Shown piece after piece: positions 1,072 through 57,401 of a stretch of DNA of 64,000 nucleotides (position 1 is its first letter; each line of letters begins with the position of its first letter). Origin of the DNA: a virus (Duplodnaviria; Caudoviricetes); the IMG/VR virus record IMGVR_UViG_3300032030_000041, positions 1 to 64,000 of that record; one strand, 5' to 3'. Under the pieces are notes generated by a model that searched no databases, had not been told where the DNA came from, and saw only the letters and a program-made list of their open reading frames with translations. The translations under genes and the position numbers were made by a program.

Positions 1072-1102
1072 TGCTATTGGATAGACGTCATACCCTTTAG
1101 CG

Positions 1103-1175
1103 CCCACTCCTGCAGATTCGAACTGCTCCATTCAAGGGCTTTGCCCTTGTGCTCTTCCATTAAGCTAAGTAGTGG
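1103..1175 (-). tRNA. tRNA-like element / pseudo-tRNA with non-canonical anticodon arm
   Basis: Minus strand: acceptor CCACTAC/GGAGTGG, D-arm GCTT-AATGGAA-GAGC, arm CAAGGGC-AAA-GCCCTTG, T-arm GCAG-TTCGAAT-CTGC; no U33, no encoded CCA. Confidence 0.6.
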
Positions 1176-31336: not shown

Positions 31337-34300
31337 ATGGCTGATGCAATTTAGGTTCCAGTACGATTATAGATAGCGAATTTATAGGACTTAGTGAAGA
31401 ATCTATAGAGTACTTTGGGAAATTTAAAAATAGGCACAAAAGGTTATTAGGATGTTGAAAATGCAATTAAGAGAATTCAAAGTGATATTGATAAACTACA
31501 GTTGCAGAGTTCTAAACCATTTGTTTCTGAAAAGCAATTTTCTACAGCGGATAAAACAGTATCTAAGTTAGAAGAAGATGTGAGTCGTGTAACTTAGATG
31601 ATGTCTCGTGTTAAATTTGGAGACTTAGAACTTAACAATACCCAAAAGGCGCAATTAAAAGATTTTGAAACACAAATTGAAAATGTTAAGAAAGCAATTG
31701 AATCATTAAAGGGCGTCGCAAAAGCTGATTTTCTTGCTGGCGATATAGGTAAATTATATTCTGATCTTGACCCTGCGGCCGCAACTCGATCTTTTGAAGA
31801 TATTGGAAAACGTATTGATCAAGAAGTAGATAAATAGATACGAAGTGTTAAAGCGGCAGAAGATGCGCTAAAAGATTATTAGAATGCATAGCGTGTGAAT
31901 AACAACATTGATTAGTTTCTATCTGGTAAAAATGGATTAGATGCTAAGACAATGGGTAAGCAGTTATATGATAAAATCTTCTAGCAAGTTTCTATGAAAA
32001 ACGGAAATATGGTTACTCGTTTTACTGGAAAAGGGCGCAGTTTACTAGAAGATTATTTAACGCAATAGTATAGTTTAGATCCGGCTTTTGCCCATGATTT
32101 GGTAAGCGATAAGGCCAGCGAAGTATTAAAGTTAATATCAACTTCAAACGAAGCTTTAACAGCAAAATTATAGGCCATTAAGCAGCGTAATGCGGCGACT
32201 ATTAATAAAAATTCTACAGCTAAGATTGCCGTAGATGAGGCATAGAAAAAACTCGATGATGCGTTAGCTATGAAGTAGACGCATACTGATGCGGGAAAAA
32301 CATTAGATGAATCTACTAGTAAGATGAATTCTGGACTAACTACACTAATTGAAAATTTTCATAAATGGCAGCAAGCTCAGGCTGCCGCAGCAGGAGCCTC
32401 TCCTGCTTTAACATCTAGTGTATAGCGTTTTAATTAGGAAATTCAAAATTTACGCACTAATTTAGCTTCATCTTCTTCTGAGTTCTTGAGATTACAACGT
32501 ACTGCATCTAATTTTAATGCTATTAAAATGTCTATTGTTAATTTTATGGGCTTTAGACAAGTATTAAACGTAGTAAAACGAGGTATTTCCGAAGCTGTTA
32601 ATCATATTAAAGAACTAGATACTGTAATGAATGGTATTTCTATTGTTACAGATATGTCTACGAGTGATCTATGGGGTCAAGTTGAAGCCTATAGTGATAT
32701 GGCGTAGAAATATGGTACTACTATAAAAGGTGCATATGAAGTTTCATAGATTTACTATCAACAGGGTTTGTCTACAAATGAAGTTTTAACATTAACAGAC
32801 TAGACATTAAAATTAGCAAAAATTTCTGGACTAGATTATGCTACAACTACTGACTATATGACTACTGCTCTTCGTGGCTTTAAGATGGAAGCAGAAGATG
32901 CGGGTAGGGTTGTAGATGTTTATAGTAACCTAGCCGCCCATACTGCAGTATCATAGGAAGAACTTGCAATTGCAATGAGTAAAACAGCTTCTTCTATGGA
33001 ATCTGTCGGGGCAACATTTGAAGAAACCTCTGCAATGATTGGTACAATGGTTGCCGTTACTCGTGAATCTCCTACTAATATTGGTAGTGCTATGAAGAGT
33101 ATCGCCTCTCGTTATGGTGAATTAACAAAAGATCCTACGATTTTAAAAGATAGTGAAGGCGAAGAACTAGTATTCAACAAAGTTGATGCGGCATTACAGT
33201 CTGTAGGTATTTCAATGCATACTGTAGATGGACAATTCCGTTCATTTACTGAAGTTATTACTGAATTAGGAGAGAAGTGGGACGAATTAGATAGCACACA
33301 ATAGCGTTATATTGCTACTCAATTTGCTGGTAACCGTCAGCAATCTCGTTTCTTGGCTTTAATTAGTAATATTGATACATTTAAAGCAAATTTGGAATAT
33401 GCTGAAGATAGTGAAAATACAGGTACTTTACAAGCTTTGAAATCACTTGATTCTATTGAAGCCAAAGCGGAGCAAGTACGTGTTGCTTATCAACAAATGT
33501 ATACCTCCCTCGGTGCAGAAGAACTATGGAAAGATGTTCTTGACATCGTGCGCGGTTTTGTAAATACTCTTAATGGCTTATCTAAACCAGGTGCTCTAGT
33601 AACATTGATTGATACTATTAAGACATTAAAAAATATAGGCATAGGTACAGTTAGTAAAGTTTCTGATTCATATTTTAATGGCAATGGTGTTCTCGGATGG
33701 CTAACTGGTGGTAAATATAGACAACAAATTTTAGAATAGGATAAGGCTAGAAAAGCATAGCATGAACCTTTAATGTCACATTTGTTTGGTGCCACTACAC
33801 AAGCTAATACGGCAGTAGATAGCAAGCGCGCGGCAGAAGAAGGTGCCGCCGCAGCAGCAGAGCGAGAAGCAGCTGCTAATGAAAGAACCGCCGCTGCAGC
33901 ACAACAGGCGGCGGCTGCGAAATAGGAGAATAAGAGTGCGAATTCAGAAACGGCGACAAGTCAACCTCAATAGCCAACTACCGCAGTAGATTTAGCAACA
34001 TAGTTTGCAGGAAACGGCGTTACCCAATAGTTAAAACGAAATTTTAATCTTAGCGGTGATATTGAAGCGATAAAAGGAGAGTTATCCAGTTCTCTTAATG
34101 CAGTTATATCTTAGACAGAAGGAGCAAGCGCAGCTTTAGCTAATGCTGGTAAATTAGGAGTTGAGCAATATTTAAATGGTATTATATCTGGCATTCCGGA
34201 ATTATCAGATAAGGCGGCTGAATTATCTGCAGCACTTGTCGAAGGTTTAAATATCAGTTGGCCATAGTCGGAGAGTCCTGTAAATAGTTTAAATATAGAT

Positions 34301-37300
34301 AATTTAAAATCTCAAATTACAGAGTTTTCTCAAGCAGCTAATTTAGAGCCAATATGGATTGAAGCCCGTTTAAAATTTGTTGATGAAATACAGGCTTTGG
34401 ATCCAACTATATTATCATAGATTTAGGAAGCAATTAATGCAATTGACTTTAGTTCTCCAGATTGGCAAACAGATTTTACCGCGGCTATAGAGAAAATTAA
34501 AGAAAATGCAGCTAGTCTTGGTATTGATTTAACGCCAGCCTTCGAAAAAGCGGGTGAAAATGGTATTGCTGGACTTGTAGCTGGCTTATCTTCTGGGAAT
34601 CCTGCCGCAGTTGCAGGTGAAAAAGGTACATAGGTCATTGAAGCATTAAAAGCTGGTATGGGCTGTCATTCTCCTTCTGTATTTGCAATGATTGCTGGTT
34701 AGAATGTTATTGCAGGTTTATCTGAAGGGATACAATCTTCTGCACAAGAAGCAGTAGATGCAGCAAATAAAGCAGGTACTTCTGTTATCGATGCTTTAAA
34801 AGAAGCTATGAAGTTCGATGATAATAGTTTTGCGGCTTTCAAAGATAGCATACTTGCATAGATTGATTAGCTTGGTCCAGACGTTAGTGAAGGAATGAAA
34901 GCAAGTATGCGTCAAGTAACAAATAACTTGACATTTGAAGATTTTCTTGCAGGAAAAGCTCCTCCTGAATTTTATTAGTTTGCAGGTATGTATGGAAATG
35001 CTGTAATGCAATCTGGAGTAGCTTATGCTAAGCAGAATATTGATACAGCAGCATAGGAAAAAAGTGATGCTTTAGGCTCATAGTTATTATTAAATGAAAA
35101 TGGTTTAACTGCGGAGCAGCAAGCAGAGTATGATGCGAGAAAAAAAGCAATTACGGCTAAATATGATACAGAATTTAATGATTTAAAGAAACAAAGAAAT
35201 TAGATTGAAGAAGAACAAGAAATTTTATCTTAGAAGAAGGCGAATTCTTCTTTATCTGAAGCCGAGCAAGCTAGATACGATGACTTAGAACGGCAGAAAG
35301 CAGAATTGACTTCTCGTATGGCTCAAATTAACGGGTCTCCACTAACCGCGAATAATTTTGGTGGCTTTAAAGGTCTTGAGTAGTAGGCAAAAGAAGCTTT
35401 AGATGCGGAATATAGGGCAGTCGCAGAAAATAATCAAAAATATAATCAAGGTTTAAATCGTGATAAAAATAGTATTACGGCTGATGCAGAGCGTGAAAAA
35501 CAAAAAATAGAATCCGAAGGATAGCTAGCTGCAAATAAAAATGCTAGAGATTTAGAATATCAAGCAAGTCGAGATATATATGGAAAAGATGCTCGTGCTG
35601 TTTTTACTGAATTTGATAATCTAGTATAGAATCTTTCACATTAGCATAGAGAACAGGAAAAGGTTCAAGAAAGTGCAGCAGCATTTCGTGAAACTTATGG
35701 TACATCAACTCAAAATGCATCGGCTACAGCAACACCAGTGGATACGGCTGCAGTAGAAGCCGAAACTGCTGCAATTAATGAAAAAACTGCGGCATTGGAA
35801 CGAGAAAAATAGGCTCAGGAAGCAGTACCATAGACGCCAATAGATGTTACTGTAGATCCAGAAGAGGCTCAAGAATAGGGCGCTATCGCTGGAGATGCTG
35901 CAGCTAGTGCATATGGAGAAGAGGTGAGCAATAAAAATGTGTCACCTTCTCCAATAAATAAGGGTGAAGCTGCAGAGGACGGTAATGATGCAGGAACGAC
36001 TGCAGGTGATAGCTACATTGCCGCAGTGCGTAATAACAATGCATCGCCATCTCCAATAAATAAAGACGAAGCAGTAAATGACGCTAACGACACCGCAGCA
36101 GTTGCAGCTGATGCATATGGAGAAAAGGTGAGCAATAAAGATGTGCCGCCTCCTCAACTAAATAAGAGTCAAGCTGAGGAGGATGCCAAGGCTACAGCAG
36201 AACAGGCTCAAGCAGCAGCTGCTGCGGAAAAAGCTCAAGAAACCGCAGAACAAGATCAAGACGTTGTTGCAGAATTAGCAGAACAAGCTCAAGAAATTGC
36301 AGAACAAGCTCAAGAAGATGCAGAATCAGATACAGATAAAGGTGCAGAACAAGAGAAAAGCACTCCTGCAGAATAGTCATCCTCATAGGATAGTTTGCCA
36401 GGAGCCTTATCTGCCGTTGCAGACACCGCAAAAGGCGCTGCTGCTGCGCTCTAGGATCTAGCTACTGCAGGTAAAGGAGCAGCAGACGCAAATAAAGCAG
36501 GAGCAGAAGCGGAATAGGAAGAAAAAGATGCTGCAACTAGAAATGCTGAAGCTAAAGACAGAGAAGCAGAGGCGTCTAATGGTACAGAAGATGCTAAAAC
36601 AAGAGAAGCAAGTGCTTCTGACCGTGCAGCAGATGCAGATAATCGCGAGGCAGGAGCGAGTGAACAAGCTGCAGCCACGAAAGGTGGTTTTGGTAGCGGG
36701 AATATAGGAGGTTTTTCTAGTACAAAATTAAGTCAATTAGGTAGCGGTCTTAGTATGCTAGCTGGGACTCTTCCAACATTACTATCCAAACATGGTGTAA
36801 TGGATTAGAGATCTTCTGAAAGGCTTGGTGGAGGTCTGAATTTTGTTAGCGGTGCTGCTAAAGGAGTTGCTGGCTTTTTTTCTGGTAATCCTATGATGAT
36901 TATTAGTGGCTTTATGAGCGTTCTTAATGGAATTGATCAATGGAACGAAGATGAAAAAGAAAAATTAGAACGTTTAACTAAAGAATCTGAAGAGGCTAAG
37001 AATGAATCTTTAAAAGCTACTGGTGAATACAAAGAATTACAAAGCGCAGAAAAGAAACTAACTGATTTACGTGCTAAGAGGTATGACAGCGAAGAAGATG
37101 CTGAAGCATATTAGAATGCCGTTAATGATTTAACTTCTAAATTTCCTCAGTTAGTTGCTAATTTTGATGAGGCTGGTAACGCTATATTAGAAGAAACTGC
37201 ACTTACCTAGGCTTTGACCACAGCACGTAAAGAAAGTGCATAGGCGGCCTATGATGCAGCGAAAGCTGAAGTAGCCAGAGCGAAATAGGCAAAAGAGAAT

Positions 37301-40300
37301 GCCTTGAGTGAAGCAAGAAATAAAATTACTTCTAGTTTAGACTATTTAGCTACTGGCCCAGATACATATGTTTCGCCTAAAAACAATTCTGCGAGATATG
37401 CTAACTTACTTAATAATTCTTCATTAATGCAACGAGTTTTATGGGATAATTCGGGCGTATCAAACGATGCAAATTCAATAACTGACTTTATAAATTCTTT
37501 TGAAAATGAAAATCTTGCATAGTAGGCATTTTTAACTGCGTTATATAATCAAACTAAAGATGGTGATTTATAGACATTTTTTAGAGAACATTAGTAGTTT
37601 GAAGGACTCTATCTTTCGACTGATGTCTTGGATGAATTATTGAATACTCCCGAAGAAGAAATTGGTCTTAAAGATAGCAATTTCTAGGAAGCCGTAGGAT
37701 TTTTCCGTGCATTTCGTAATTTGGGTACATAGCGCAATGAAGCTACGGCAGAAGAACAAACAAAAGCTGCGAATGATATTAATCAAGCAATTACTCAACT
37801 TCATAATGATGCACGAGATGGAACGGGCGATTTAAATGCAGATTTAGAAAGTTTAAATAGTTTATTAACACAATATAGTGACGCTAAATACGGATTAACT
37901 GAAGATATTGCAAATGTACGTGATGCACTGAGTGGAGGTATTAGTAATCTTGATACTTTTAATAAAGAAGCAGCGCAATTACAAGTTGGTATAAAAAAAT
38001 AGATTACTGAGAAATTACGGACTAATTTTGATCAATCGGCAGTAATTAACAGTAGTACTGGTATATTTGAATTAATTTCATCTAAATTAAATTCTGATTA
38101 TGAAGCTGCTTTAGAGTAGACGCCTGATTTAGAATTTGATGCTTGGTGGCTTAATACCGGAATGAACTTAGCTCAATCTTTAATGTCTTTAGGAGATAGT
38201 ATTCTTAATCAAATGACCGATGCTTAGCAGAGTGAATTTAAGTCTATGATTAAGAATAATCGTTACTACAGTGCCGATACAGTTAAAAAATATTTAACAG
38301 AGCGAGGCTATTTAACCAACGAGGGGTGGGAAACCGAAGAAGGTAAGGCATTTAGCGACTCTATTGATTAGACTTTTGCTGCCCAAGAATAGGTACGAAA
38401 GGATTTAATTGAAAAATATGCGACACAAGGTACCAATTTATCTGGTATTCAAAAATTCCAAAATCGTATGTTGTCTTAGTTAGATAAAGATACAGCCACA
38501 GAAGCTACTCGCGCAATGTACAATGACATCATTAGTAAGTATGAAGATATATATAAGTATGGTGATGATTTATCTGCATCTTATGGTTAGAAGGCATTAA
38601 TATTTACTTCTGCCGTAATGAGACTTCAAGATGAAGAGCGCATGTCTGTTTAGCAAGTTTTAGAGCAAACAGGTTATACTGCTGAAGGATTACGTGAAGC
38701 TGCTGATAAACTTCGTGAAAATAAAGATGATAATCTTACAGACAAATAGGCTAGTGATATTGCGAGTAAATTAGAAGCTATGGCAGATACCATGCTTACT
38801 AATATTGGACTTACATTAGATGCTCAAATTGATGCTTTTGTTAACAATTGGTCAGATGCTTCTAAAAACATTTCTACTGGATTATCGGGCATGGATGCTA
38901 CTTCTGCATAGAAATGGTTAACTGAGAATGCGAAGTATTTGGAAAAAGGTGGCTTAAAAGATCTAGATTTATCAGATTTAACTTATGCAGATGGAAAATT
39001 TTATACCAGTATAGAGTAGTTACGAGCATATGAACAAGGATTTGCTGAAAATTATCGTGCACAGGTTAAAGCAGCTACTACAGAGTTAGATAATATAGTA
39101 TCGAAAAATGGCTTAAAATCTACCGATCTTGCAAGTATTTCTGCAGAGGCCACAAGTTTAAACAAAGATTAGTAGACAGATATTAATCAATTAGCAGCCT
39201 GGGCTTCAGAGATTGGTTTAACTGATTTATTTACATTTGAAGTAGATGAAGAAGGAAAATATACTGGTAATGCTAAACTGGCTAAGGGCACTGCAGAGGA
39301 AGCATACAAAGCCATATTAGCTAAAGCGCAAGAATTAAAAGAATCTGGAACACATGTAGACGACTATATTTAGAATTTTTATTAGGAGCAAATAGATACT
39401 TTACAAGATGCTATTGATGTAGGAGAATATCTTAGTTCTGAAACGCGTGGAAAGGATACTGAATCTCGTAAAACATTAGAAGATTAGATTAGCCGCTATT
39501 TAACTGCATTAGATGTAGCTGGAAAGTTACAATTACCAGAAAGTTATTTAAAAAAAGCTGGATCTGAGGCGAGAGAACCATTAATTAGAGAATATACTAA
39601 GGCGCTAATTAAAGATTTGGAAGCAGGCGGATTGCAAGCAGTACAAGCTTTAAAGACCCTTAATCCCGATGCAACTTCTGAAGAATTAGAACAAGCCTAT
39701 TCTTATCTTTTTACTGAATGGCAACAAGCATTTGAATAGCTTAGTTCTATTGAAGTTGGCTCACTAGCCACTGGTAAAGTTAAAGATATTCTTTTCGGTC
39801 TTCATATGGTTGATGAAGATGGTGTCGTTAATGCTACTTTTGATATGGTAGAAGCTTATACGGCTATCTATACTGAAATGAAGTCTACTGCTGGCGCAAC
39901 TACTGCCGATCTGAACAAAACCTATGCTGAACTTCTTACTGCTAAAGACCAACGTAATATGGATGTCACAGAGATGCTCGAAAATGCGTCCGGAATGACA
40001 TACGATGCATTAGGACAAATCCTAAGTCGTTATAATATTAGACTTGAGGACGCGTTAGATGATGCTGCTGGTTATGGTTTAGAGAGTACAGGCTTTGGAA
40101 AAGTTCGTTTAACCAATTGGGAAGCTTTTGCCAAGAAGGTATTTAAGACTGAAGATTTAGCGGCGATTGCAAATACGCCAGAGTATATTAGCGCTTTTAA
40201 GGCTTATAATGATGGGCTTATTGAGTTAAATAAAAATACTGAAAAGGTTATAGTAGATGAAGTTAAGTAGATTGAAAGTGCAAAAGAGGGAGATTGGCTT

Positions 40301-43300
40301 AATTTAACCGAGTTTGGGACTTAGTATGTTACGGCATTAACAAAAAGTATTAATTTAGGAGATTATCTTGATTTAACTAATAATGATTTAGGGATCGCAT
40401 AGAAATTATAGATAGAAGCCGAAAAATATAATGAACAAATTATTCCTAAATTAAATAAAGAGCTTAATAAATGGGGCGCAAAGTTTGAGGATGGTATTCT
40501 TAAAATTGGTGATAACGCTAACTTATTAGGCATTGCTTAGACGTTAGAATAGGCAGCACAATAGGCAGGCTTAGATATCGGCAGTGGACTCGAAGAAGTT
40601 AAAGATGCTGTTCTTAATATTTTAAAATCCTATGCTGAAGCTATTACAAAAGGAATTTCTGGTGGTTTAACTAATACAGAAATGAGTGATTTAAAAACCA
40701 AAGCCAGAGATTTTGGAATTACAGACCTTCAATTTGTAGAAACTGCAGAAGGATTTAAATTAGTAAAAACTTCAGCTATAGAATTATATTCTGCTTTAAA
40801 ATCAATTGATGCCTTACATGCTGAACAAGCTTTTGATGCATTAAATGAATCATTACAAAAATCAGACGAACACTTTAAAACTACTGGAGCTTTAATGGCA
40901 CATATTGCTAGTCTTCGTAAAGAGTTATATGCGGCAGATAATCAGGTTTCCAGTGCTAGAAAAGAGTAGTATGAAGCAGAATTAGCAGTTGCAGAAGAAA
41001 TTCTTGCTGTTCGTTCAACTACTGAAGATGATTCTTTTAAGTTTATGGATTAGGCTATTCCTTCTGGTTAGAACAATCCATTAAATTATTGGGAAGGCTG
41101 GCAAAAGGCTTTTAATGCTATAAATGAAAGCAAAAAAACAAAGCGTATGGATTATACCGATTTCTATAATTTGATGACAGAAATGGGTAATCTTTCTGCA
41201 ATGCTTGGTGGAAAAGGTATTTAGATAGGTAAAGATTTAGAAGTTAATTCACAGAATTATGCTGATTTAATTACTAATGCTGCACGTAATTTAACTACTA
41301 CCGCAGATAATACCAATTTACAAGTTAATTTACCTGCAATCGATGTTGATTTTAGTTCTGCTGAAAATATGGTAAGTGATGTTTAGAGCGGTATCCAAGC
41401 TGTTGCAGATGACCAAATTAATATGCTTGATGGATTAATTGCATTATTAGAAACTATTGTTGCCATGGAGAAATTAAATGATATTGTCGGCGGCGGTAGT
41501 GAGGATAATGCAATTGATTTAGGAGATATTTTCCCTGAAATTCGTTTTGACGCTTAGGGCAATGCTATTAATCCAGAGGCGTTAACATATGTGGAAGACT
41601 ATTCTGATTTTATTAAGTATATTCGTCAATAGGCCGTTCATAATGATGATTTAGCGAAAGCATTACAATCAATGAAATTAGATGGTATTTCTTTAGCAGA
41701 AATTTTTGAGATGGATGCCACTACGCTAGGTAAAAAGGGATAGAAATTTGTTACTGCGTATACTGCATTACTTGAAAGTCTACGACAAGCCTCTATATCT
41801 GGAGATTATGATGTAGATAATATTATGGCTAGCGTGAAAAACGTTTTGGCTGAATCAGGTTTAACTGATTTAACAATTGATACTGGTAAAGCTACATTGA
41901 TATTCTCTGGCGGCACTATTACACAAGTTAATTGGGAAGAACCCAATACTGCAGAAGTAGTAGAATAGGTAACGGCTCGTTTACAGGTAGATACAGAAAA
42001 AGCAAGATAGGCTGTTATAGATGCCGAGCAAGCGTATGCAAAAGGTAAGGGTACTGGCGAATTAACTCTTCAAGAAGTTTTAATTGTTGAAGGTAAAATT
42101 AAAATAGATCCAGAAACAAAAGAATAGTCTATATAGGTTGGTAATAGTACTTATAAATCAAGTGATAGTAAGTGGCAAGGCGCGCTTGAAGCACAAAGTC
42201 TCCTTAAAATGGGGATAGATAGTAAAAATATATAGATAGAAGATGACCGAGCACTATCTACTGAGTATCATATAGGTAATAAATTCAATATTACTGTAGA
42301 AGCTAAAGACGGTATTACAACTATTACAGGCACTGGAGCATATGGTGAAACAATTACTGGTAATAATCAAGATGAATGGTTAAAGAACTATATATCAAGT
42401 TTCCGTGAATATTCCTTAAAATATGGAGAAACAGAAGCAGCTAAATGGACTGATAGTTAGATCTTATGGCGCACTTTAAAGATTCGAGTCAATACAGAAA
42501 CTAAAGTTATAGATGAAAAAGGAAATGCCATAGATCTTTCTAATGATGCTGCTCGTCGTAAAGAGCTAACTGATATTCGAAATTAGTTACAAGCAGGGAT
42601 GTCCGCAAAAGATTTGGGATTTACCGACTCTGGTGACGGCAACTGGGTTAAGACCTTAGAAACTGGCGGAACATTAGTTGTTGATGGAAGTAAGATTAAA
42701 GTAGACGTAGAAGGGAATCCAGATACCGCATAGTTTACTTCAGAAATAGAGTCTAGTCTAGGGATTGATCAGGCATTAAAAGATACTATTTCTGCTGGAA
42801 TTACTGCGTCAATTCCTTCTCTAACTCAAGCCTTAAATACAATTGATGCTCAGCCAGTTCAAGACGTTGCAGCGGCAATTTCTGCAATTGCCACTGATGC
42901 GTAGACTGCTGTAACTAATATCTAGAACTTAGCTACTAATTTAGCTCAATTACAAACTCTTTCTCCAGAAAATAGTACTGGACAAGCAGCACAAGACTTA
43001 ATACCTTCTTCACTTGAAATCCCGCTTAAATTAAAATAGGACGATGTAACAGCAGTACAAACATAGCTTAAGTCCTTTGAAGGTGAAGCTAAAATTGATG
43101 CTGACACGAGTGATTTTGATGATAAAGCAGAAGAAGTTAAGGGCACCTTAGATACAATTGGACTCGGCGCTGAGGCAAAAATTACTGTAGTCGATCAGGC
43201 TTCTGTTATTTTATCTCACATAGTTTCACTATTAAGATCAATTAATAGCAAAAACATTACTGTAACTACTACTTATGAAACAATAGGAACGCCTCCTGCC

Positions 43301-45901
43301 GGAGGTTTTGAATCTGGGGCAAACAAGGTTATTACAAACTCAATTAAGAAACCAGGTAAGGTGACAGGCAACATTGGTCTTGCCAAATCCAAAGGAACTC
43401 TTATGGGCGAACTTGGCCCAGAACTTGTGGTCTCCAACGGACGTTATTTTGTCGCTGGACAAAATGGCGCGGAAATGGTTGATCTTGCAGATGATGCAAT
43501 TGTTTTCAACCACTTACAGACCGAATAGCTTCTAAAGAAGGGGATGTCCAATAGTCGCGGTAAGGCTGTTACCTCTGAAAAGAATGCGGTTGCATTCGCA
43601 ACTGGTAATACCGGTCCTGCAATGGCTAGTGCTTCCGCGGCATTAGCTGCTTTAAAACAACTACGCGCAATGTGGGAATCTCTTAAAGAGGCTTCAGTAT
43701 CCGACCTCGCCGGTGGCGGCGGTGGTGGAGGAGGAGGCGGCGGCGGAGAAGATTCCAAAGTCGTTGATCCTTCTATTTGGGTTGATACAGTTGAGCGCTG
43801 GTATAACCTAATGCAGAAGATTGCTAAGCTTGAGAAAGAAATTACACACGAAGAAACCTTACGTTCTAAACTACAATCTGACTGGAATGCGAATGGCAAC
43901 CATTATTATGCTAGCTAGAAACGTTCTCTTGAAGCTTTAAAGCAATAGATTGATGCATAGGAACAACTTAACCTAAGTCGCGAAGCCTATTACGATCAGC
44001 GTGTTGAAGCGCTAAAGAACTAGCCTTTCGGCAAGCTTATTGAGTTTGATAACGAAGGTTAGATGCGCTTTAAATCTGGCGCGATGGAATGGCTAACTGA
44101 TTTAGCTGGTTTTGATTCCTATGGAAAAGCCAACTATACTGACGAAGAGAAATATAATATACTCGTAGCCGCAGGTTATGAGGATTATATGAAGTATAGT
44201 GAAGGCGGCGAAATTAAGATGGATAGCGACAGTAACGGTGAAGTTACTGATGAAGAAATGCAATCTTTCTATGGTGAAGCTACAAAAGCTTTCTGGGACA
44301 AGATTGACGAGTATAAGGAAGCCACCCAGAGTCTTTGGGATTCTATTAAAGAAGGCGAAGACAGTATTCTACAACTTCAAGCCGATCAAAATGATTTACT
44401 TGAAGAAATTCGAGACAACCAGATGGAAGTTGAAGATGCTGTACTTAAAGCAATTGAAGATATGCGTCAGCGTGAAATTGATGCGTTACAGGATGAGCGC
44501 GATAAGTTAGAGGAATCTACTTAGAAATATATTGATGGACTAACAGATGCACTTAACAATGAGCGCTAGATGTATGAAAATCAATAGCAAGAAAATTCTC
44601 TCAATTAGCAAAGACGTCGTTTAGCTATTCTACAACGTTCTGGTGGTAGTGCGCAAGATATCGCAAATCTTCGTTCTGAAATTAACCAGTCTGAAAGAGA
44701 AAGATATTTTAATTTACAGCAACAACAAATCGACGCTATTCAGTAGGCTTCTTAGCTAGAAATCGAACGTATGGATAGTCAGATTGAGTTAATGACTGAA
44801 GCGCTAGATTACTAGAAAGAATATGGCCTACTTTGGGGTAACGTATATGAAGTTATGGAAGGAACAGCGCAGCAGATTACTTCTTTCATTACGAACGGTA
44901 ATTCTGAGTTCTGGGCATTATCACCATTAGGAACTGCTGATAACGCAAATCAAACTTTATTTAAGGCGGAATAGTGGACTTCTTATAGAGCGGATTTAAA
45001 TAATGCAAAAGCTGGTATTGGCGCGAATGGAGTAACTGCAAAAGATATTAGAGATAATGTCGCATTGATGGTTGCAATGACACGCCAGCAAATGAAGAGC
45101 AACGACTATGCTACCTTCGATGAAGCTATGAAAGCAGAATTTGGCGCTGGATATGACCCAAGCGGTGCATATCGTGACTTATTTAATTCTGAATACGATA
45201 AGCACGGAGATCTTACAAAAGCTACTGCAACTGCGAGAGCAAAATATGCAGCTGATAAAGCTGCGGCTGAAGCCGCGAGAAAAGCAGCAGAAGCTGCGGC
45301 GACGCAGGCTAGTTCTGGTGGCGGCAGTGGAGACTCCGGCGGTGGAGGTGGTGGAGGAAGCTCTACCTGTAATACCGCTTGTAGTAATTCGTGCGGTACA
45401 GAGTGTACTAAACGTTGCGCAGCAAATTGCGGTGGAGGATGCCAAATTCTTGCTGGTGGTTTTACAGTAGGCTTTAAAACTATAGTAGGTGATGCCACAA
45501 AAACCGCCGCTAAAGCTCCTACTCCATTAGCTCAGCCTAAAAAGAAATCTGTTGGCGGTTATGCTAACCACGGTATTTATGAGCTCGGTGAACTTGGTAC
45601 AGAAACAGTCCTAACTGCTTCTCAAACCAAGATTCTCCGTGACAACATTCTCTCTAACCGTCCAAATTCTCTCATCTCTCTACTTAAATCTTATAACGAA
45701 GGTTATGATGGAATTAATAATTCCGTTAGTGGCGTAACTCCTGTTGAGGATAATTCCACCATTATCGAGAAAGTTGAACTCAAAATGGAAGTTAAACAAA
45801 TTGCTAATGATTATGATGCTCGTCGCGCAGGCGAACAAGCACTTAACGAAATGATGCGTATTGCCCGTAAGACTGGCGCTGCGAACAGTATAAGGAGGTA
45901 A
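31337..45901 (+). CDS. giant tape measure protein, ~4,854 aa (many TAG recoded)
   Basis: All 12 substantial plus-strand ORF fragments from 31598 to 45065 share the frame of ATG 31337; TP901-type TMP core at ~32.5-33.5 kb; HSPS motif; GELGPE motif; not every codon was checked for TAA/TGA. Confidence 0.85.
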
Positions 45902-45908
45902 AAGGAGT

Positions 45909-47801
45909 ATGGCAGATATTGCAACATTAATGGGTAATGAAGTGGAGTCTTAGACTCCATTTCGTACCCAAGTTTATAAGGCGACGCATGATGGGCAGCT
46001 TCGGCTGCCTTTCATGCAGCGCTCTTTTATTAGTTTTTCCTATGGTGGAAAAAACATTGAAGATTTTAATTTAATTGCATACACCAGCGGCGATAGGATG
46101 GAAAAAGCTGGATACGCAGATTTTGAAGACCTAACAACTACATATGACACAATTCAAGGACAATTCTATTGGGGAACATATTTTCATGCCAATACATTAA
46201 GTTTTACTTTGGCAACAGATGGTATAACTGAAAACGAATTAGATGAATTTAAACACTGGTTTAGGGCCGGTTCAATTAGGGAATTGATACTAGCCGAGCA
46301 TCCCAATAGGGCAATCCTCGCGCGAGTATCAACACCGCCGCAATTACATCTTCTTGGATTTAAGCAAGAAGTAGAAGTGCCATTTCAAATCGGCAGTGAT
46401 GAAAATATTCATGCTGTTTCCTACAAAACTTTTACTACTGTATATCGCGGCGAAATTGATTTAGAGCTTGTAATGGACGAGCCTTTCTGGTATTCTGTGC
46501 AGAATATCTTAGGGCATTAGAATACACTAGAAGGCTATTATGAAGAAAGCTGGATTGATGCTAATGGTCAATTGACTACTATTAAAGATTCTAAAGATGC
46601 ACTTAAGATTATCTATGAAGATAGAATACCCTTAGGTAGTACTACTAAAATAGATGTATTCTTAGGTGGCGATATTTACGCATCTGTTAAATATGAAATA
46701 TGGGCACGTATCGTGGGTGAAACTAGTAAAGACCTATATGATAGTGTAATGGAAGACGAAGCATCTTCAGATCAAATGAAATTTGCTTATTATACCGCAA
46801 CAGAGGATCGTGAAACTTATGACCCTGAAACCGGCGAATCTTTAGGCCCAGCGCCGACTACTGTATATTATCGGGGCGGGCGCATTTACAATGATGAAAC
46901 AAATCTTGGCGCGAAAATCGGTGGTGCAGAGTTAACAGGTTCTAGTGCGCCAGTACAAGGTATTGAATTGCCTTATGGCTCTAATGCAAATCTCTATTAT
47001 GCTGGTACTGCGCCTTCTCCTGTAAAGTTGCGCTTTACTCTTAAACCGCAAATTAGGTAGCAAGACCCAACCGGCACTGGACAAGCTTTTTATATTATTA
47101 CGCCACGTAATTCACATTCAGATGGTACGCCCGCATATAATACTATTACTTTGCGCGCGAGTGCCTTACATGAATTTAAGTTCACGCTACCGACTTTTTG
47201 GTTAAGTTACAATTAGGTTATTGAAATATTTGATAGCGATGAAATTATGGCGCCCGGTAATGCTTGGCTAACTGTACGCGAAACTATACGTGATACAATA
47301 CGTCATCCAGTAGTTCGTGCTTGGGCCAATATGCTTCTAGATAAATATGATACCTTAAATGGAAATGGTATCATTGGTGATGCGAATCGGTATCGCGGCG
47401 ATTTAGAAGAAGGTATGTCAATGCTTATATGTGATAAAACGGGTGAACCATTCTCTGCTGAATTTAGTTTTGATGCGAAAACCGGCCTTGCGATTGGAAA
47501 GTATACCTATCGTGATTTATAGCAGGCACGCGCGCAATTACCCAATATTGGCTCAACAAGTTCATGGCGTGAGTGTTTAAATTTAGTTGATGAAACAAAT
47601 TATACTACTTCACAGGAAGAAAATGTTGGAGATATGGTGCGGAGTTAGTACCTAATATTAGATGAAAGAAATGTTTTAGATGGCAATTATTAGGTACAAG
47701 CTTGGGAAGAAGCGCATCCAGATTATGCTTACTTAATTACTCACGATGTATCTAATGGCCTCTAGGACTTACATTTTGAATTTAAAAACTTGTATCTCTA
47801 A
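45909..47801 (+). CDS. distal tail protein (Dit)-like, 630 aa (TAG recoded)
   Basis: Follows TMP; three fragments in one frame; ELILAEHPNR and DEPFWYS motifs. Confidence 0.7.
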
Positions 47802-47823: not shown

Positions 47824-50800
47824 ATGGCTGATGGATTACTGCATTATTATAATACGAGAGTACGCAGCTATGAGGTTTCTATTTGGACACTTTAGGACAG
47901 ATTCTTATCTGTCCTAAAGTGGTCTACTATGGATTGTAAAGGGTAGATTTAGGATGGATCTGTGGTTATGCGTGACGACGGAACGCAAGAGCTTACATTT
48001 TCTATTCCTAAATATTATCAGAACGGAGCATCTCGTATTGATAATCCTATGTGGCTACACCTTGAAAATTAGCCGCTAGAAGCCAATATGCATAAGCTGA
48101 AGATTATATTTAACAAGAACACAGAAGATGAGAAAGTACTTGAATTTTTAGTTACAGAAGTTACTCATGATCATTAGAGTGATAATATTGATATTAGCGT
48201 AAAAGCCGAAGGATTGGCTTTTCATGAGCTAGGAAAACTAGGATATAAAATTGCGTTATCTGAATAGAATTATTTAGATGCATTAGATGAATGGGAAGAA
48301 GAAGGTTTCTTGACTGAGTAGCCACTCAATAATATTTAGTTTTGGAATGATTTAGTATTCAAGAAGTCTAATGGAGATTGGAAATATAATTGGACATACG
48401 AGATTCGTATGGATTGGTCTTCATTCAAGAATCCGGACGTGTTTTAGGAAGCTTCATATAGAAAGAGTAATATTCTATATGAAGATGACTATGTATCTTC
48501 TTGGGAAGTTGGCGCCGATGGCAAGCTAGTTTCGCGTACTATATAGAATATGCGCGAAAAGTGCCGCATTATGGATGTATCAGAGAGCAATATTTATAAT
48601 ATAACGCAAGATATCGCTAAGCAATTTGGCGTTTTTTGCCGCTACGAATACACTCATGATAATAATTATTAGATTATCGGACGAAAAGTAGTTTATTATA
48701 ATAACTATCTCTAGGATGTATAGGGACATATTGATTTAACTTATCCCTACAATTCTACAGCAATTACACGTACTGTAGATAATAGTAATGTTACTACTAA
48801 GATGTTTGTAACTGGTGTAGATTATGATTCTGATACTGTTACAATTATGGATGTAGATGCTAATAAGAGCAAAGAAGACTACCTACTTAATTTTGATTAT
48901 CTACGACAGAATTAGGGCATTACGGATGAATAGTATGATGAGATAGGATATTATGAAGCCGATATGCACACCCTTAATACAAACTTAATTCAAATCCAAG
49001 AACGCATTCGCATTGTACAGAATCAATTGACAGAAGCAGAAGCACAATTAACTATACATGAAAATGCAATTGATTTAGATCGTGAGCGTATGGAAGAAGC
49101 AGGTAAACTGCGCGCAGAACTTACTGGTGGCACTAATGTCATTCCTATTAACGGAACAGCGTGTACTTTATTATATAAAGCTGAGCGTGGATTTTATATT
49201 AATATTCGTTGGAATGGTTTATTACGCAATACTGTTAAGATATATCGTACTACAAATTATACAGGTTCTGACCGTTCATTTGATGGGCTCATTACCTAGT
49301 ATTCTTTTGTCGCAGATGAATTTTAGAATGTAATTCGTATTGAGCATATTGCGGGCGCAGGCTTAGAAGAAGGAAATACATTATGGCTAGTAGGACAGTA
49401 TAATCCGACTTTAGCATATGATAATATAGAGAAGATTTGGAAAACTCGTTTAGCTTATGATTTGGCACAAAAAGAGCTACTTGAGGAACGTATTCGGATA
49501 CTAAACTTCTATCTATATGGCTGCCGTTTAGGTTTTGCGCGTGTAGATATCTCTTCTTTGCCAGAAGAAGAGGTTGGCGCACTGGGTATTGTTTGGGATG
49601 AAGATACCGATCCGTCTGAAGTAGAAACAGTGACACGTAGTGTACGTGTAGATGAATCTCGTATCTTAAACTCTGAAGAAGAGTTTATAGATTGGGATTA
49701 TGATTACTTTGGCTTATTGGATGAAAAGAAAGGTACTCCCGAGTTATTATACAATGAAGCTCGTCATTTAGAGAATAAAGCACAGTTAATTAGTGATTTT
49801 GAGAAGATGATGGGTCCGGCACTGCGTGAAGGCTATTGGAATCCTGAGAACTATCATGACTATGGAGACCTATTTAAAAAGAGTTTTAGCTTAGTAACAG
49901 CCTTAAAGCCTACTGTATAGACCTTGCGTCCAGATTCCGAAGATCATTTTACATGTATTTGGGACTATGAAAAATATTATGACAGCGAGACTCCTTTGCT
50001 ATATGATACAGAGATTGCAGATAAAGTAGAATAGCATTTAGTTATAAGCTTGAAGGATTTAACAGCAGAAGGGCAAGATAAATTAATTAGTCATTTAGGA
50101 GAGATTTGTTTTGTTTACTGCAGTCCGGCAAATGTTTCTACTATTCGTGAATTAAAAGAAAAAGGCTACGAAGATACTAGTGAAGAAATTATTGCGTTAG
50201 AAAATAGTAAATATTATAGTTATCAAGTTAATTCTGGATGTGAATTAGGATGGATAGTTACAACTAATATAAATAGCGCTGGTAGAGCTTCTTTAGAATT
50301 AGCGCTCATCGTTACTGGCGCGAAAGAATTGGATGATGACACATATAATTTCTTAGTAACAAATAAGTATAAAGTATCTTATGTTGACCCAGATACTGAG
50401 CGAATAGTTACTAATCTAGTAACTGCAGACGCAGAAGCTCGTAGTTTTATTGGTTATCCAATATATAATCAGGATGGCAGTGTTACCTGGGAAAACATTC
50501 TCACTGTTGGTGGACAAGCAAGTAGATTTTTAGGCACACGAGAAGTTTCTAATGGTGATTATGATAATAATGGTAGCACACGGCCGCCGACTCCATAGGA
50601 ATATCAATATAAACGTGTATATCCGCGTTTATATTTTGATACACTAAAATTAAAAGAAAAAGCTCTAGAGATTTTCTAGAACTCGTATTAGCTTGAAGAA
50701 AATAAAGAATTTTACGTACTTGAAGATGATAGATCTGAGGGATTGAATATAAAAGGAATTGGCTATTACGTTACTTTAAAACCTGAGACAATTCTTATTA

Positions 50801-53355
50801 CCACTAAATCTAAGGTGGATTATACTGTATTATACAGTCTTTCTAACTTAGATGTTTCCATTTATTTGGATGCTATTAAAGTTATGAAAGAAAATGCTTT
50901 CCCGAAGGTTTCGTATGAAGTAGAATTAAGCTTATTAAATCCGGAGTTCGTACATACTGCTTATAATAGGCTTAATTAGGTTGTACATATCAATGATAAT
51001 GATTTAAAGTTAGAAAATATTAGTGGATACATCTCTACTATTACGATGGACTTAGACCATCCATGGCAAGATACCATCGAGATTAAGAACTATGAAACGA
51101 AATTTGAAGACCTATTTACTACAATTGTCGCGCAAACAGAAGCAATGAAAAGTAATTAGGTGGGATTAGAAACAGCGGTATAGGCATTTACTGCTAATGG
51201 ACTAATTGACCCAGAAGTAGTATATGATAGTATACGTAGTTCTAATTTGAATCTTGCTTTCAACGCAGGCACATTAACTATAGATTAGGCTGATGGTATC
51301 TGGGGTACTAGCGATAGCGGCGTTGTTGCATTTCGTGGCGGCGGTATTTTTACTGCTACGGAGCGAGATACTAGCGGCAATTGGATTTGGAATACTGGTA
51401 TTCTACCATCTGGAATCAATGCTAATTTAATTACATCAGGTTAGCTAGATACAAATAAGATTAGAATATTTGCTGGTGACCAGCTTAAATTCCAATGGAA
51501 TGGAGAAGGTTTATATGCCTATAAATCATTTTCAAATGAATATCTAAAGTATCTATAGAGTTAGGATGTATCATTCGTTCCTCATTCCCAGTTATTAGAT
51601 AAGAAACAATATGTTGTATATAACTCAGAAGGTTTATTCCTTACAAGTGAAGCTGGTTCTTATATTATGAAGGAGAATGTTGGCGGAGAAGGTTATATCT
51701 ATGAACGCTTAGACGATACTGTACATCGTGTCGAAATAAGCTGGAATGGACTTATTTTGCGGAATTGGGAAGCAAAAAAAGTATTCTATGCTGACCCAGA
51801 TACAGGTAATTTAACATTAAGCGGTCGTATTGAAACACGTAGCGGGCATATTGGCGGTTGGGAAATTAATGAACACATGCTTGCTGGCGCAGGTATTCAG
51901 CTAATTAGTGGATCTGAGACTAATACTGTTAATAATGCTGGTATATATTTAAATGATAATTAGGATTTGTGTGATACTGTCACTATTAATGGTTCTACGT
52001 ATTATACTTATTATTATACCGATCCAGCAGATTCGCGCAGAAAAACATGCTATTTGAATTATTATACGCCTGGCGTCGCCTCTATTACTTTAAATGGTGG
52101 TTAGTAGGTTTATACATAGCAATCGGTAATAAAGACTGTATCACCAAAGTTTGTATTTGCCGTTTCTACATATGATACTGATATTGATGCAACTAGTACG
52201 AATACATATACAGAAGCAACGGCAACAGTAACTAATAGTGATACAACATTATATTTTGCTAAAACTTCAGGCAGTAAAACGCCTGTTAAGGATTCGCGTG
52301 GAGTAGTTATCGAATATGATTTAACCAATAGCGCGAATGCGGGTTGGTATCAAGCTGCAAAACAGGCCGATCCTTCTAATTATACAAATTATATTAATGA
52401 AGTATATGGAATGGATTATGTTTTAACTACGCTTTCTTCTTCCGCATTAACTTTAACTCCTTCAGTTGTAACAACTACAACATTTAGTGTTAGAGCTTCT
52501 TCAGGAGAAGCAAAGATATTAGCGGGTACTATAGGAAACTTCACTATTAATCGTACTTCTTTAACTGGTGGTACAATTGCTAATAGCGTATTCAACATTG
52601 ATAACTATTATATGGCCGGTTCGAAGAAACATGCTTTTGGTGATTGTTTCTGCGATATAGATGCTAATAGCTCACAAGGTATATTTACATTGACCCGTGT
52701 GGATGGTAGAACTGCAAATTTTAATATTGCCGCGATGGAAGCCTATTAGAATGCCGTCGCGGCTGCGGGTTCTATTACTTTAACACTAGTAGATAATTAG
52801 GATATGACTGTAACTGCGACTGCAGTGAGCGGTAATGGCACAGTTGTAACAAGGACTCTTACTGTAGATACATGTGGAGATACGTGTACTGGTACATGTA
52901 AAGGCAATTGTTCAACAAGTTGCACCGGGGATTGTGGTAGCGGATGTTCTGGCGGCTGCGGTGGTGGATGTTCTGGTGGCTGTGAGGATAACTGTGATAC
53001 TGGATGTAAAGGCGGCTGTGGCCGCAGATGTGAAAGTAATTGCTCTGGAAAATGTGGTAAGAATTGTACTGGTGGATGTATTGGGTATTGTAAGGGCGAA
53101 TGTCTAGACTCCTGTCTAGGTGGTTGTAAAGGAACCTGTGTTAGTGGCTGTAGTAATTCATGTACTGGTACCTGTAGTACCACTTGTGATCTACATTGTA
53201 GTTCAGGTTGTGGTAATAATTGTATGGGTTCTTGTAAAGATGGATGTGGTAGCAGCTGTACTGGCGACTGTAAAGGTAGTTGTAAACAAGGATGTAAAAC
53301 TGGGTGCTTGAGTACATGTACAGGAAAAAGTACAAAAGTACTTATTGACGGTTAA
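47824..53355 (+). CDS. tail tip / baseplate hub-central fibre protein, 1,843 aa, C-terminal CXXX repeat domain (TAG recoded)
   Basis: Seven fragments in one frame; GINANLITSG[Q]LDT and GHIGGWEI fibre motifs; 38 CXXX repeats. Confidence 0.8.
52873..53328 (+). repeat. 38 perfect tandem Cys-X-X-X (12-bp) repeats
   Basis: Counted from the translation CGDT...CTGK. Confidence 0.95.
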
Positions 53356-53360
53356 TTAAC

Positions 53361-53406
53361 AAAAAAATAGCCCGGACGTTTAATAACGTCCGGGCCTTTA
53401 TTTTTT
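53361..53406. terminator. bidirectional terminator at the convergence of virion and replication operons
   Basis: A-tract GCCCGGACGTT/AACGTCCGGGC T-tract. Confidence 0.85.
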
Positions 53407-53798
53407 TACTCATCTTCAAGATTTAAGAATGGCTCAAGGAATGTAATATCAGTAGGTGTAAAATCTAGTTGTTCAATATCAGAAAACTTAATAGGATCGG
53501 CTTCCACGGTTGTTTCTTCTGCGACTAGCTTATTCATTTCTTCTACAAATAGCTTCATATGAGCTTCATCAAACTGATATTCGTTTTTTTCATTCAATTC
53601 AAATGAGCCATCTTCTTTCTTCTTAGCATATTTTTCTAGTAAGCTATTTCTTACTTCATTATATGATGTAAGAACTTCTTCTAGCCTCTTTAGAAGACGA
53701 CCAATACGAAATGCTACGCGTCCAGGCAACGCTTGATTACTTAACTTCTGTAATACTTCTTGCCCTTCCAATATATCGCGTAAAGTTACTCTAATCAT
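53406..53798 (-). CDS. hypothetical protein (DUF1617-like), 130 aa
   Basis: GGGGAG SD; ATGA overlap; resemblance from memory only. Confidence 0.7.
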   Translation of the reverse strand: MIRVTLRDILEGQEVLQKLSNQALPGRVAFRIGRLLKRLEEVLTSYNEVRNSLLEKYAKKKEDGSFELNEKNEYQFDEAHMKLFVEEMNKLVAEETTVEADPIKFSDIEQLDFTPTDITFLEPFLNLEDE

Positions 53799-54544
53799 AT
53801 ATCTTCTCCCCAAGTACTGTGTACTTTAATTTTATTACAAAAATATTTTCCAATGCAAATAGCATCGGCTTCATCTTCGGTGCAGTCCATTTTGTACCAA
53901 ATCTTTACTTTGGCTTGTGCCTATTTTTTCTTAGACTCTCGATGGGCGTCACCATCATTCACGCCGCAGTAAGAACGCCATTCGCTGGGATATACTAAAT
54001 CATGGTCTATACAGGCTTCAAATAGAACATCTAAAATTACGCCCTGCAAGTTTGCTAATGTTTGGAATGTTTTAACTTGCGCCTAAGTTTCTCTTTGTCC
54101 ATACTTCTATAGCTAAATATTTTCAACCCCAACAAAGTCTGGCTCCCATTCCTTTAATGCGGCTTTAAGCCAATTTTTCACTTGATTTATGCGCTCAGTA
54201 GCTGGTAATGTAGCACTAGTTTTGAAAGTACCATATCCAACTAACGTTCTATTATCATAAATAGCATATCCTGTAGTTCCAGTAGCTGCATCAAGAGCAA
54301 GAATACGCGTTGTATTTTCACTCTTTTGCGGCACTTTATTTTTTTTAACTTTATATGGATCACCGGCCATACAGATATCACACATTTTATGTTTGCGCCA
54401 ATATTCAAATGTTTGCGACTGTGCATGACCCTATGGACACTACATTTCCAAAGGTGTTTTTAAATTTTTATACTCTTCACTAATTAATTTCCATCCTTCA
54501 GATTCTAATGCGTTCTATACCGTATATATATTAATTTTAGCCAT
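53795..54544 (-). CDS. RuvC-like Holliday junction resolvase with N-terminal Zn-binding segment, 249 aa (7 TAG)
   Basis: ILALDAATGTTGYA, VENI[Q]L[Q], PSEWR and EDEADAICIG motifs; coupled to both neighbours. Confidence 0.85.
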
Positions 54545-56366: not shown

Positions 56367-57401
56367 TTATCCTCCCGCATTTCGGTTATATCCGAATGTC
56401 TAAGTATCAAAAAATTCAATATAATATTTTTCAAGCTCAGAAAGCTTATCTTTATCACAATAAGTAATTATTTCAATTGACCAGTTCCAGAAACCAGTTT
56501 TCAATATTTCATGGTGTACTGCTTGATCTGCAATACTTTTAATGCCAATTGATGATTTGAAATGATCCGCAATTCGTTTCTTTACGTCAGTACTTTTCCC
56601 AATATAAGCCTTCCCGCTATCTAAATTAGTTAACTTATAAATACCGGGTTCTGCCTTGACTTCAATTCTCTTAAAAGTATCATCCAAATAAGGTTTTACA
56701 TACTCTGCCCAAACTAGCTTTGATATAATGTCTGGATGCTGGACTTTCGCGGCAACAGTTGTAAGTAAGAATTCAATATCTTCACGATACTCTTCTGGAA
56801 GCTATATCGTATAGAACAACTTAGCCTATTTATCTTTCTCATATTGTAGAAGTGGCTCTCTAGCACTTAAGAAGCGTTCTCGCTGCTGTTCTTCAAGAAG
56901 CTAGTATTCTTTTACTTTTCCCTATGCTTCTTCAATTTGCTCGGCCATCCATTTCTTCGCATCTTCAGCCTACTTATCGCATTCTTTTAAAGTCTTATCT
57001 AATTCAGCCTTCAGAACCGATTTCTTCTCATTAAATGTTTCATCCAATGATTCCTGGCGGCGTTGCCGCTATTCATCCATTAACTAATCAATTTCCTACA
57101 TACGTTCATTAACTAGATTATGATATTCGGCGCGCGCATCAGTTAAACTAGTTTGCGCGCTATCCAACTAATTTCGTATGTCTGTTAATTTCTAATATTC
57201 TGTATTATACTTAATTGTGGTATCAAGTAACTTACTCTCATAGGCACTGAGTGCTTTCTTTTGGAAGCTAACCTAATCTTTTGCTTCTTCAAGTTGCCGA
57301 TTATATTCATTAAGTAAACCTTGATCAACTTGACGCTTCTGATAAAGTAAATACCCCAGAACTCCAATAATAATTAAGCAAACAATCAGTATAGCAATCA
57401 T
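56367..57401 (-). CDS. membrane-anchored coiled-coil GIY-YIG nuclease, 344 aa (about a dozen TAG)
   Basis: N-terminal TM MIAILIVCLIIIGVLGYLLY, long coiled coil, GIY...YIG...R...E...GYN. Confidence 0.8.

Follow-up and report, generated by a model that had tools for sequence, protein, structure and literature searches.

A tailed-phage genome fragment deposited in IMG/VR encodes, among its tail genes, a protein whose C-terminal part carries a cysteine at every fourth residue. Why would a virion protein end in this way: is the tract a target for a phage-encoded radical SAM maturase, a thiol-rich segment that works without enzymatic modification, a free peptide that only appears to be joined to a tail protein, or simply a low-complexity spacer? 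We investigated these questions in the 64,000-nucleotide stretch that contains the gene (hereafter the window), in the 95-kb fragment to which it belongs (G000; 95,086 positions, 54% complete according to CheckV) and in related phage genomes. We consider it rather likely that the tract, situated on the tail hub of a TAG-to-Gln recoded ruminant-gut phage of ~190 kb (a size estimated from a complete 188-kb relative), is the substrate of a phage maturase of the TIGR04115-like type acting together with a partner protein of ~92 aa, and that it receives thioether staples.

A cysteine ladder joined to a tail protein by TAG read-through

Translation of the tail-tip region with table 11 yields a series of short ORFs, which merge into a single long ORF when TAG is read as Gln. 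The features of this region are:

47824..53355, + strand: gene of the tail-tip protein in the Tal position; 1,843 aa with TAG read as Gln, 35 in-frame TAG codons, TAA stop at 53353-53355
52747..52800, + strand: stretch with the final pair of in-frame TAG (Gln) codons (52747-52749, 52798-52800), through which the ladder is connected to the rest of the protein
52873..53319, + strand: ladder of 38 Cys-X-X-X units, aa 1684-1832; matches to TIGR04114 and phrog_6085; not a tandem repeat at the DNA level
53320..53355, + strand: C-terminal tail of 11 residues, TGKSTKVLIDG (from the translation), and the TAA stop
53369..53396, no strand assigned: bidirectional intrinsic terminator at the end of the tail operon; stem of 11-12 bp (8 GC), T-runs on both strands

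In the translation of the 1,843-aa ORF the ladder cysteines fall at positions 1684, 1688 and so on to 1832, with all 37 consecutive spacings being exactly four, and the intervening residues are varied: X1 is K, G, S or T, X2 is rich in G, and X3 is G, T, S or N. This agrees with the original prediction, made from the letters alone, of 38 cysteines at an exact period of four with diverse X positions. The prediction had, however, extended the ladder to 53355, which is the end of the ORF, whereas the ladder itself stops at 53319. Only 11 Asp or Glu residues occur within the ladder, and the 1,683 aa outside it contain 13 cysteines. The underlying DNA is barely repetitive, with Tandem Repeats Finder reporting a single stretch of 3.5 copies at 66% match; thus, it is the protein sequence that maintains the period, which does not reflect a recent DNA expansion. 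The ladder (P0003) scores 28.9 bits against the NCBIfam model TIGR04114, which describes radical-SAM-target repeats and has a cut-off of 20, and so bears out the proposed resemblance to radical-SAM-modified peptide substrates. PF27846 is likewise a precomputed match on all homologs of the tail-tip protein.

As judged from its sequence and that of a complete relative (G001, described below), the phage is TAG-to-Gln recoded (code 15). In-frame TAG codons number 35 in the tail-tip gene and 123 in the tape measure gene. Across 16 ortholog pairs between this record and G001, 33 of the 59 TAG codons of G000 that face a non-TAG codon are aligned with Gln; the reverse comparison, with TAG in G001 and a non-TAG codon in G000, gives Gln in 35 of 59. 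Furthermore, G001 has a tRNA with the anticodon CTA at 183528-183615, situated 470 nt downstream of its maturase gene; no suppressor tRNA was found in the 54%-complete record of the phage itself.

An alternative to the long ORF is that the last 183 codons, from an ATG at 52804 to 53355, are translated alone as a leader-plus-core, RiPP-like precursor, resulting in a free Cys-rich peptide that is not part of the virion. The original prediction had pointed to a possible separate start near 52804, and a table-11 ORF of 183 aa (52804..53355) does exist there: it has an ATG and no internal TAG, a Cys-free stretch of 23 residues precedes the ladder, and the identical 183-aa product has been deposited by standard-code gene callers. 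However, this start is without a proper ribosome-binding site, having only AGGA at a 1-nt spacer, whereas AAGGAGG precedes the true starts of the operon by 6-10 nt; a strong SD (aaaggagg) lies 5' of the ATG of the tail-tip gene. The Met encoded at 52804 is also missing in L002, L003 and P0008-P0011. In the G001 ortholog of the tail-tip gene (L003:9965-16834) TAG codons lie within the Cys ladder itself, and there the ladder can thus be read only by suppression, within the long ORF. With respect to the two TAGs upstream of the ladder, the first (52747) is a CAA/CAG Gln codon in L002 and TAG in L003, and amino-acid conservation continues unbroken across both of them in P0004-P0007. Translation of the last 183 codons on their own is accordingly very unlikely. 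From the ortholog alignments and the weak ribosome-binding site at 52804, the ladder is part of the 1,843-aa tail protein, joined to it by TAG read-through in the manner originally proposed.

The ladder is borne by a predicted tail hub

The genes upstream of the tail-tip gene provide the context for its assignment:

31337..45901, + strand: gene of the tape measure protein (4,854 aa, 123 TAG codons), two genes upstream of the tail-tip gene; PF10145 (PhageMin_Tail), 109 bits
45368..45442, + strand: second CXXX mini-tract with 7 Cys, following a poly-Gly linker near the C-terminus of the tape measure protein (pattern scan and translation)
45909..47801, + strand: gene for a protein of 630 aa in the Dit position (assigned from gene order only), with the tape measure gene before it and the tail-tip gene after it

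The 630-aa protein in the Dit position had no match in the family search. For the tail-tip protein, an AlphaFold2 model of residues 1-420 was obtained at moderate confidence from an alignment of 13 sequences. Foldseek searches with it recovered the monocin tip 9j1k_L (3e-6), the Listeria prophage gp18 3gs9 (5e-5) and the 80alpha Tal 6v8i_AE (8e-4), with further matches to VgrG, Mu gp44 and T4 gp27; the TM-scores to Tal/gp27-like hubs are low, at 0.25-0.31, and come from a model of pLDDT 60.7. A profile search of alignment A1 against PDB sequences gave no match. By its gene order (tape measure, Dit-position gene, Tal) and its modelled hub-like N-terminus, the ladder protein is a gp27/Tal-type hub, and the tail-tip (Tal) position assigned to it in the original prediction is upheld by the PF10145 gene two genes upstream and by the hub matches of the N-terminal model.

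The 80alpha Tal, the Listeria gp18 and the monocin tip, hubs that carry C-terminal extensions, show the same gene order and match the N-terminal model, and in the present group the C-terminal module is swapped between relatives. More distant homologs retain the N-terminal 1,100-1,600 residues and have unrelated, Cys-poor ends, in which Pfam recognised no family. As these homologs keep the N-terminal part and end differently, the C-terminus is an exchangeable module, and the ladder may occupy what amounts to the receptor-binding slot of the hub. We know of no described Tal protein that ends in a Cys ladder.

Conservation of the period and the spacer alternative

Full-length homologs of the tail-tip protein range from 1,814 to 2,040 aa. 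These related loci were retrieved with alignment A1 as the query rather than with the single sequence; a search for related loci with the single C-terminal protein found none, and tblastn and megablast searches of the tail-tip region against INPHARED gave no match. A similar C-terminal ladder is present in 14 proteins, nine of which are full-length homologs and five of which have other N-terminal architectures. Their tracts contain from 26 to 163 Cys, with both odd and even counts, and end 5-11 residues before the C-terminus in the homologs. Over 97% of the Cys-Cys intervals equal four in the Tal homologs and in P0012-P0016; the exception is the distant P0017, in which the share is 75%.

No structure is predicted for the ladder. 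AlphaFold2 gives a pLDDT of 33.7 for the last 314 aa of the tail-tip protein and ~25-30 within the ladder, and an ESM Atlas model is equally poor (pLDDT 0.50). The lack of an AlphaFold fold neither favours nor disfavours modification of the ladder.

Could the ladder then be a compositionally odd, fast-evolving low-complexity spacer with no specific function? The X residues and the number of repeats vary freely (26-49 Cys in the Tal homologs), and the absence of a predicted fold fits such a description. Set against this is the retention of the four-residue spacing (at the level given above, including the 75% of P0017) even where a tract has as many as 163 Cys, despite unrelated N-termini and non-repetitive DNA, which means that the Cys period is under strong selection. 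The ladder also co-varies with a dedicated enzyme, as described in the next section. We regard a functionless spacer as very improbable.

A TIGR04115-like maturase in a complete relative

The sole radical SAM protein encoded in the 64-kb window is NrdG (TIGR02491, 152 bits), the gene for which adjoins that for NrdD (TIGR02487, 481 bits). The earlier statements that the window has no maturase and that NrdG is explained by NrdD are therefore both correct. Neither a TIGR04115-type maturase nor its partner protein was found in the whole 95-kb record.

The IMG/VR genome G001 (188,358 b, 100% complete) is colinear with this record, with most aligned ORF pairs being >80% identical, and positions 1-95,086 of G000 match the part of G001 that descends from 126.7 kb to 26 kb. 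At 181767-183059 it encodes a protein of 430 aa (P0018; 8 in-frame TAG) that matches TIGR04115, the CXXX-repeat target radical SAM peptide maturase family, with 336.6 bits (E 2e-100, positions 2-359 of 359; equivalog cut-off 350). The next-best family is PapB (NF047865), with 147 bits, and TIGR04463 reaches only ~57 bits. P0018 has the SAM-cluster motif CX3CX2C, as C33-x3-C37-x2-C40, and the seven-Cys SPASM motif, as C278...G291-x4-C296; C345-x2-C348-x5-C354-x2-C357...C376, and the cysteines of both motifs are invariant in 16 homologs. A partner ORF of ~92 aa overlaps the start of the maturase gene and occupies the same place in the seven loci inspected; it aligns with positions 3-89 of 90 in TIGR04116 at 14-17 bits, far below the cut-off of 50.

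A six-frame scan of G001 yields a single genuine Cys-ladder coding tract, that of the orthologous tail protein, at ~72.3 kb, some 109 kb from the maturase gene at 181.8 kb. Thus, in this complete genome the maturase has exactly one plausible substrate. Since G000 is colinear with the 26-126.7 kb part of G001, the syntenic position of the maturase falls in the part missing from G000, and from synteny with this one complete relative we infer that the missing part of the present genome carries the maturase gene. Two more distant complete genomes, G005 and G006 (DTR, 100%), in which the homolog has a different C-terminus, were found to have neither a ladder nor a maturase. The co-occurrence of CXXX tract and maturase expected from the original prediction is therefore seen within the clade as presence of both in G001 and absence of both in G005 and G006 (one positive and two negative complete genomes), but no maturase accompanies the tract in the phage's own 54%-complete record.

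Sequencing runs from sheep and goat gut contain the window. In runs X1-X4 there are contigs covering the maturase gene of G001 with ~80-92% identity, but as several related phages share these samples they do not tie the gene to this genome; maturase contigs of ~90% identity in the same gut samples give weak backing to the presence of the maturase. When INPHARED was searched with the maturase, the only matches were a pair of faecal phage records that lack annotation, 37-39% identical to it. In a scan of bacterial genomes the one close match (58%) lies on a 9.4-kb contig of a rumen Erysipelotrichaceae MAG, a single contig that is too weak a basis for naming the host.

Pairing of maturase and CXXX tracts across phages

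The maturase has more than 1,000 homologs at E < 1e-20, and 187 IMG/VR contigs encode it. Among the best 80 of these 187 loci, 65 have a CXXX tract, counted as at least seven Cys at period four, on the same strand within ~1.2 kb. The neighbouring CXXX proteins are of 190-550 aa and have a conserved N-terminal domain. The loci lacking such a neighbour are those of the closest relatives of the G001 enzyme, although in two of these records a CXXX/CXXC protein with a looser pattern is encoded 2.2 kb downstream. In hhalign comparisons of the small phage CXXX proteins with the tail proteins the Cys tracts alone align, indicating that the two have no 'leader' domain in common. The phage cassettes and the system studied here have the same maturase family and the same ladder, but differ in that the former usually have a separate protein of 190-550 aa beside the maturase, whereas in the latter the ladder is fused to Tal and unlinked from the enzyme. 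When the raw DNA of IMG/VR was scanned for TGY codons recurring seven times with a period of 12, the matches were chiefly simple tandem repeats of 12 nt and contigs of giant viruses, which made the scan useless for co-occurrence statistics.

These observations bear on the possibility that the ladder functions without enzymatic modification, through its free thiols, as a metal-thiolate (metallothionein-like) or disulfide-stitched rod at the tip, with the maturase of the relatives acting on another target. The lack of a maturase in the phage's own 54%-complete record fits this possibility, as does the Gly/Ser/Thr-rich composition and predicted lack of structure (pLDDT ~25-30), which would be expected if the segment needs ligands or cross-links in order to fold. 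Weighing against it, the complete G001 has a family-specific maturase with no other Cys-ladder substrate, and maturase and CXXX tract are paired in those 65 of the 80 best phage loci. The constant spacing together with odd and even Cys counts (26-163) suggests selection on the spacing and is a misfit to complete intrachain disulfide pairing; the CXC, CC and CXXC motifs of metallothioneins are absent from the ladder, in which all spacings are four; and the habitat is anoxic and reducing. An unmodified ladder is in our view unlikely.

Relationship to known radical SAM systems

One close relative of the system is the NCBIfam CXXX system, with TIGR04114/PF27846 and TIGR04117 as targets along with TIGR04115 and TIGR04116. 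The ladder shares with these targets the Cys at every fourth residue and the small polar X residues, and the enzyme of the relative G001 aligns end-to-end with TIGR04115 and also has a partner of ~90 aa encoded directly upstream. The scores of the maturase (336.6 against 350 bits) and of the partner (15 against 50 bits) are, however, under the cut-offs. The NCBIfam system is defined only bioinformatically and consists of small bacterial precursors adjoining the maturase. In contrast, the ladder studied here forms the C-terminal end of a virion protein of 1,843 aa in a TAG-recoded phage, with the maturase of the relative ~109 kb away, and is thus not a small adjacent precursor. To our knowledge the TIGR04115 family has no characterised product, and our literature search found no publication that deals with CXXX-repeat proteins of phages or with the chemistry of TIGR04115 enzymes.

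PapB, which acts on PapA to give freyrasin, is a radical SAM/SPASM enzyme that introduces thioether staples at repeated Cys motifs and acts independently of the leader on C-terminal motifs (PMC12715619). In two further reports, it joins Cys to the Asp or Glu four residues on, in a C-X3-D/E arrangement (PMC9413430, PMC10739248). PapB is the second-best family for the maturase, but the substrate here is a large structural protein in which acidic residues are rare, and the C-X3-D/E rule is inapplicable because residue i+4 in the ladder is Cys in 37 of 37 intervals. Another distinct system, CrpC/CrpA of Methanococcus voltae, uses a radical SAM/SPASM enzyme to form thioether cross-links on a whole Cys-rich repeat protein (PMC13692751). 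It is comparable in that its substrate is a Cys-rich protein and not a short peptide, and differs in being archaeal, with a 17-residue repeat, a C-X-X-Q/D motif, a maturase of the TIGR04463 family and a substrate outside the virion.

A possible pathway of tail-tip maturation

If the ladder is indeed modified by a phage maturase, the following sequence of events may be envisaged. As the maturase gene contains TAG codons, the enzyme would be synthesized late, together with the tail proteins, through TAG suppression. Together with its partner, the maturase would then act on the flexible C-terminal ladder, and, if it resembles PapB, CrpC and the SCIFF maturases, the regularly spaced thiols would be converted to intramolecular thioether staples. 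The product would be a distal tip made rigid by covalent bonds and unaffected by reductants and proteases, suited to an anoxic habitat in which disulfides would be unreliable. The ruminant gut and the NrdD/NrdG pair of the phage, which suggests an anaerobic lifestyle, make oxygen-sensitive radical SAM chemistry feasible and disulfides unreliable. Given the maturase of the complete relative, the virion tip is probably enzymatically cross-linked. The thioether chemistry is projected from the characterized enzymes, the role at the tip is likewise a proposal, and our choice of cross-link type is a guess, TIGR04115 being a family with no characterised product.

A bolder version, which we put forward tentatively and hold to be somewhat doubtful, is that the C-terminus of the tail hub is a continuous stapled thioether ladder with 38 staples (and up to ~160 in related virion proteins), forming a redox-proof nano-rod for contact with or penetration of the host, and that the same tag grafted onto the tape measure protein reflects a general hardening of virions in anoxic habitats.

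As far as we know, enzymatic cross-linking of the RiPP type has not been described for any structural protein of a virion, and a literature search on this subject found no such case. At the level of sequence, what appears to be new is the fusion of the ladder to a Tal-type hub, the unlinked location of the maturase (~109 kb) and the presence in the tape measure protein of a further copy of the tag, with 7 Cys. Stapling of the ladder by the phage's own radical SAM enzyme would amount to a new chemistry of virion maturation, would provide the uncharacterised TIGR04115 family with a clear natural substrate of defined geometry, and may explain the rigidity of the tail tip in the reducing, protease-rich contents of the gut. 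Among relatives, the mini-tract of the tape measure protein is variable: it has no counterpart in G001 and is present in two copies at the same place in G011.

CXXX tracts and a Hint-type domain on virion proteins

The tape measure protein encoded in the window (31337-45901) is 4,854 aa long, as against 5,352 aa in the colinear, complete relative G001. By the customary rule of 1.5 Å of tail per residue, a protein of this length would correspond to a tail about 0.7 µm long in the window phage. Close to its C-terminus, the same protein carries a short counterpart of the cysteine ladder:

45368-45442, CXXX mini-tract with 7 Cys, inside the tape measure protein gene

It is preceded by a poly-Gly/Ser linker and lies about 180 aa ahead of the C-terminus. 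The ortholog in the related phage G011 has two such mini-tracts in the same place, and that of G001 has none there, with a different insert in its stead. The mini-tract has the appearance of a portable tag, here carried by a further protein of the virion.

In the G001 ortholog of the tail protein, the ladder comprises 26 Cys and is followed by a further domain:

L003 (the G001 tail protein locus):16331-16831, Hint/intein-type domain of about 165 aa

This domain was recovered by TIGR01445 (30.1; cut-off 24.5) and TIGR01443 (19.1; cut-off 15.6). It begins with Cys and ends in HN, with Ala as the residue thereafter, and could be capable of self-cleavage, though not of splicing; it is therefore possibly a C-terminal domain that removes itself. 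The longest ladders of this analysis, with 99-163 Cys at a period of 4, occur in five database proteins of 1,580-1,800 aa (P0012-P0016, with no locus), which combine them with N-terminal Listeria-Bacteroides repeats (PF09479).

Maturase variants in other phages

In some phages the TIGR04115-type maturase gene is interrupted by an intein directly after the CX3CX2C motif (L075:4771-7170; proteins P0084 and P0131), giving products of 628-800 aa with precomputed matches to PF14890, PF14528 and PF07591. The related phage fragment G009 encodes two TIGR04115-type paralogs (L018:5992-7287 and L018:8174-9484), and directly downstream of them a 237-aa CXXX/CXXC protein; the scan, which covered the second paralog only, scored it at 342 bits.

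tRNAs and TAG-containing nuclease genes

G001 has 21 tRNAs, as against a single call in the 95-kb record of the window phage, made by ARAGORN:

G001:C1:183528-183615 (L115), amber suppressor tRNA with a CTA anticodon, located downstream of the maturase gene at a distance of 470 nt
G001:C1:4853-4924 (L106), tRNA-Cys
Window 1102-1175 (-), tRNA-Phe with the unusual anticodon AAA, the sole tRNA of its record

Two window genes contain TAG codons:

53795-54544 (-), 7 TAG, resolvase of RuvC-like type whose N-terminus is HNH-like
56367-57401 (-), 12 TAG, product containing a GIY-YIG domain ('group I intron endonuclease')

The replication genes surrounding these two are nearly TAG-free.
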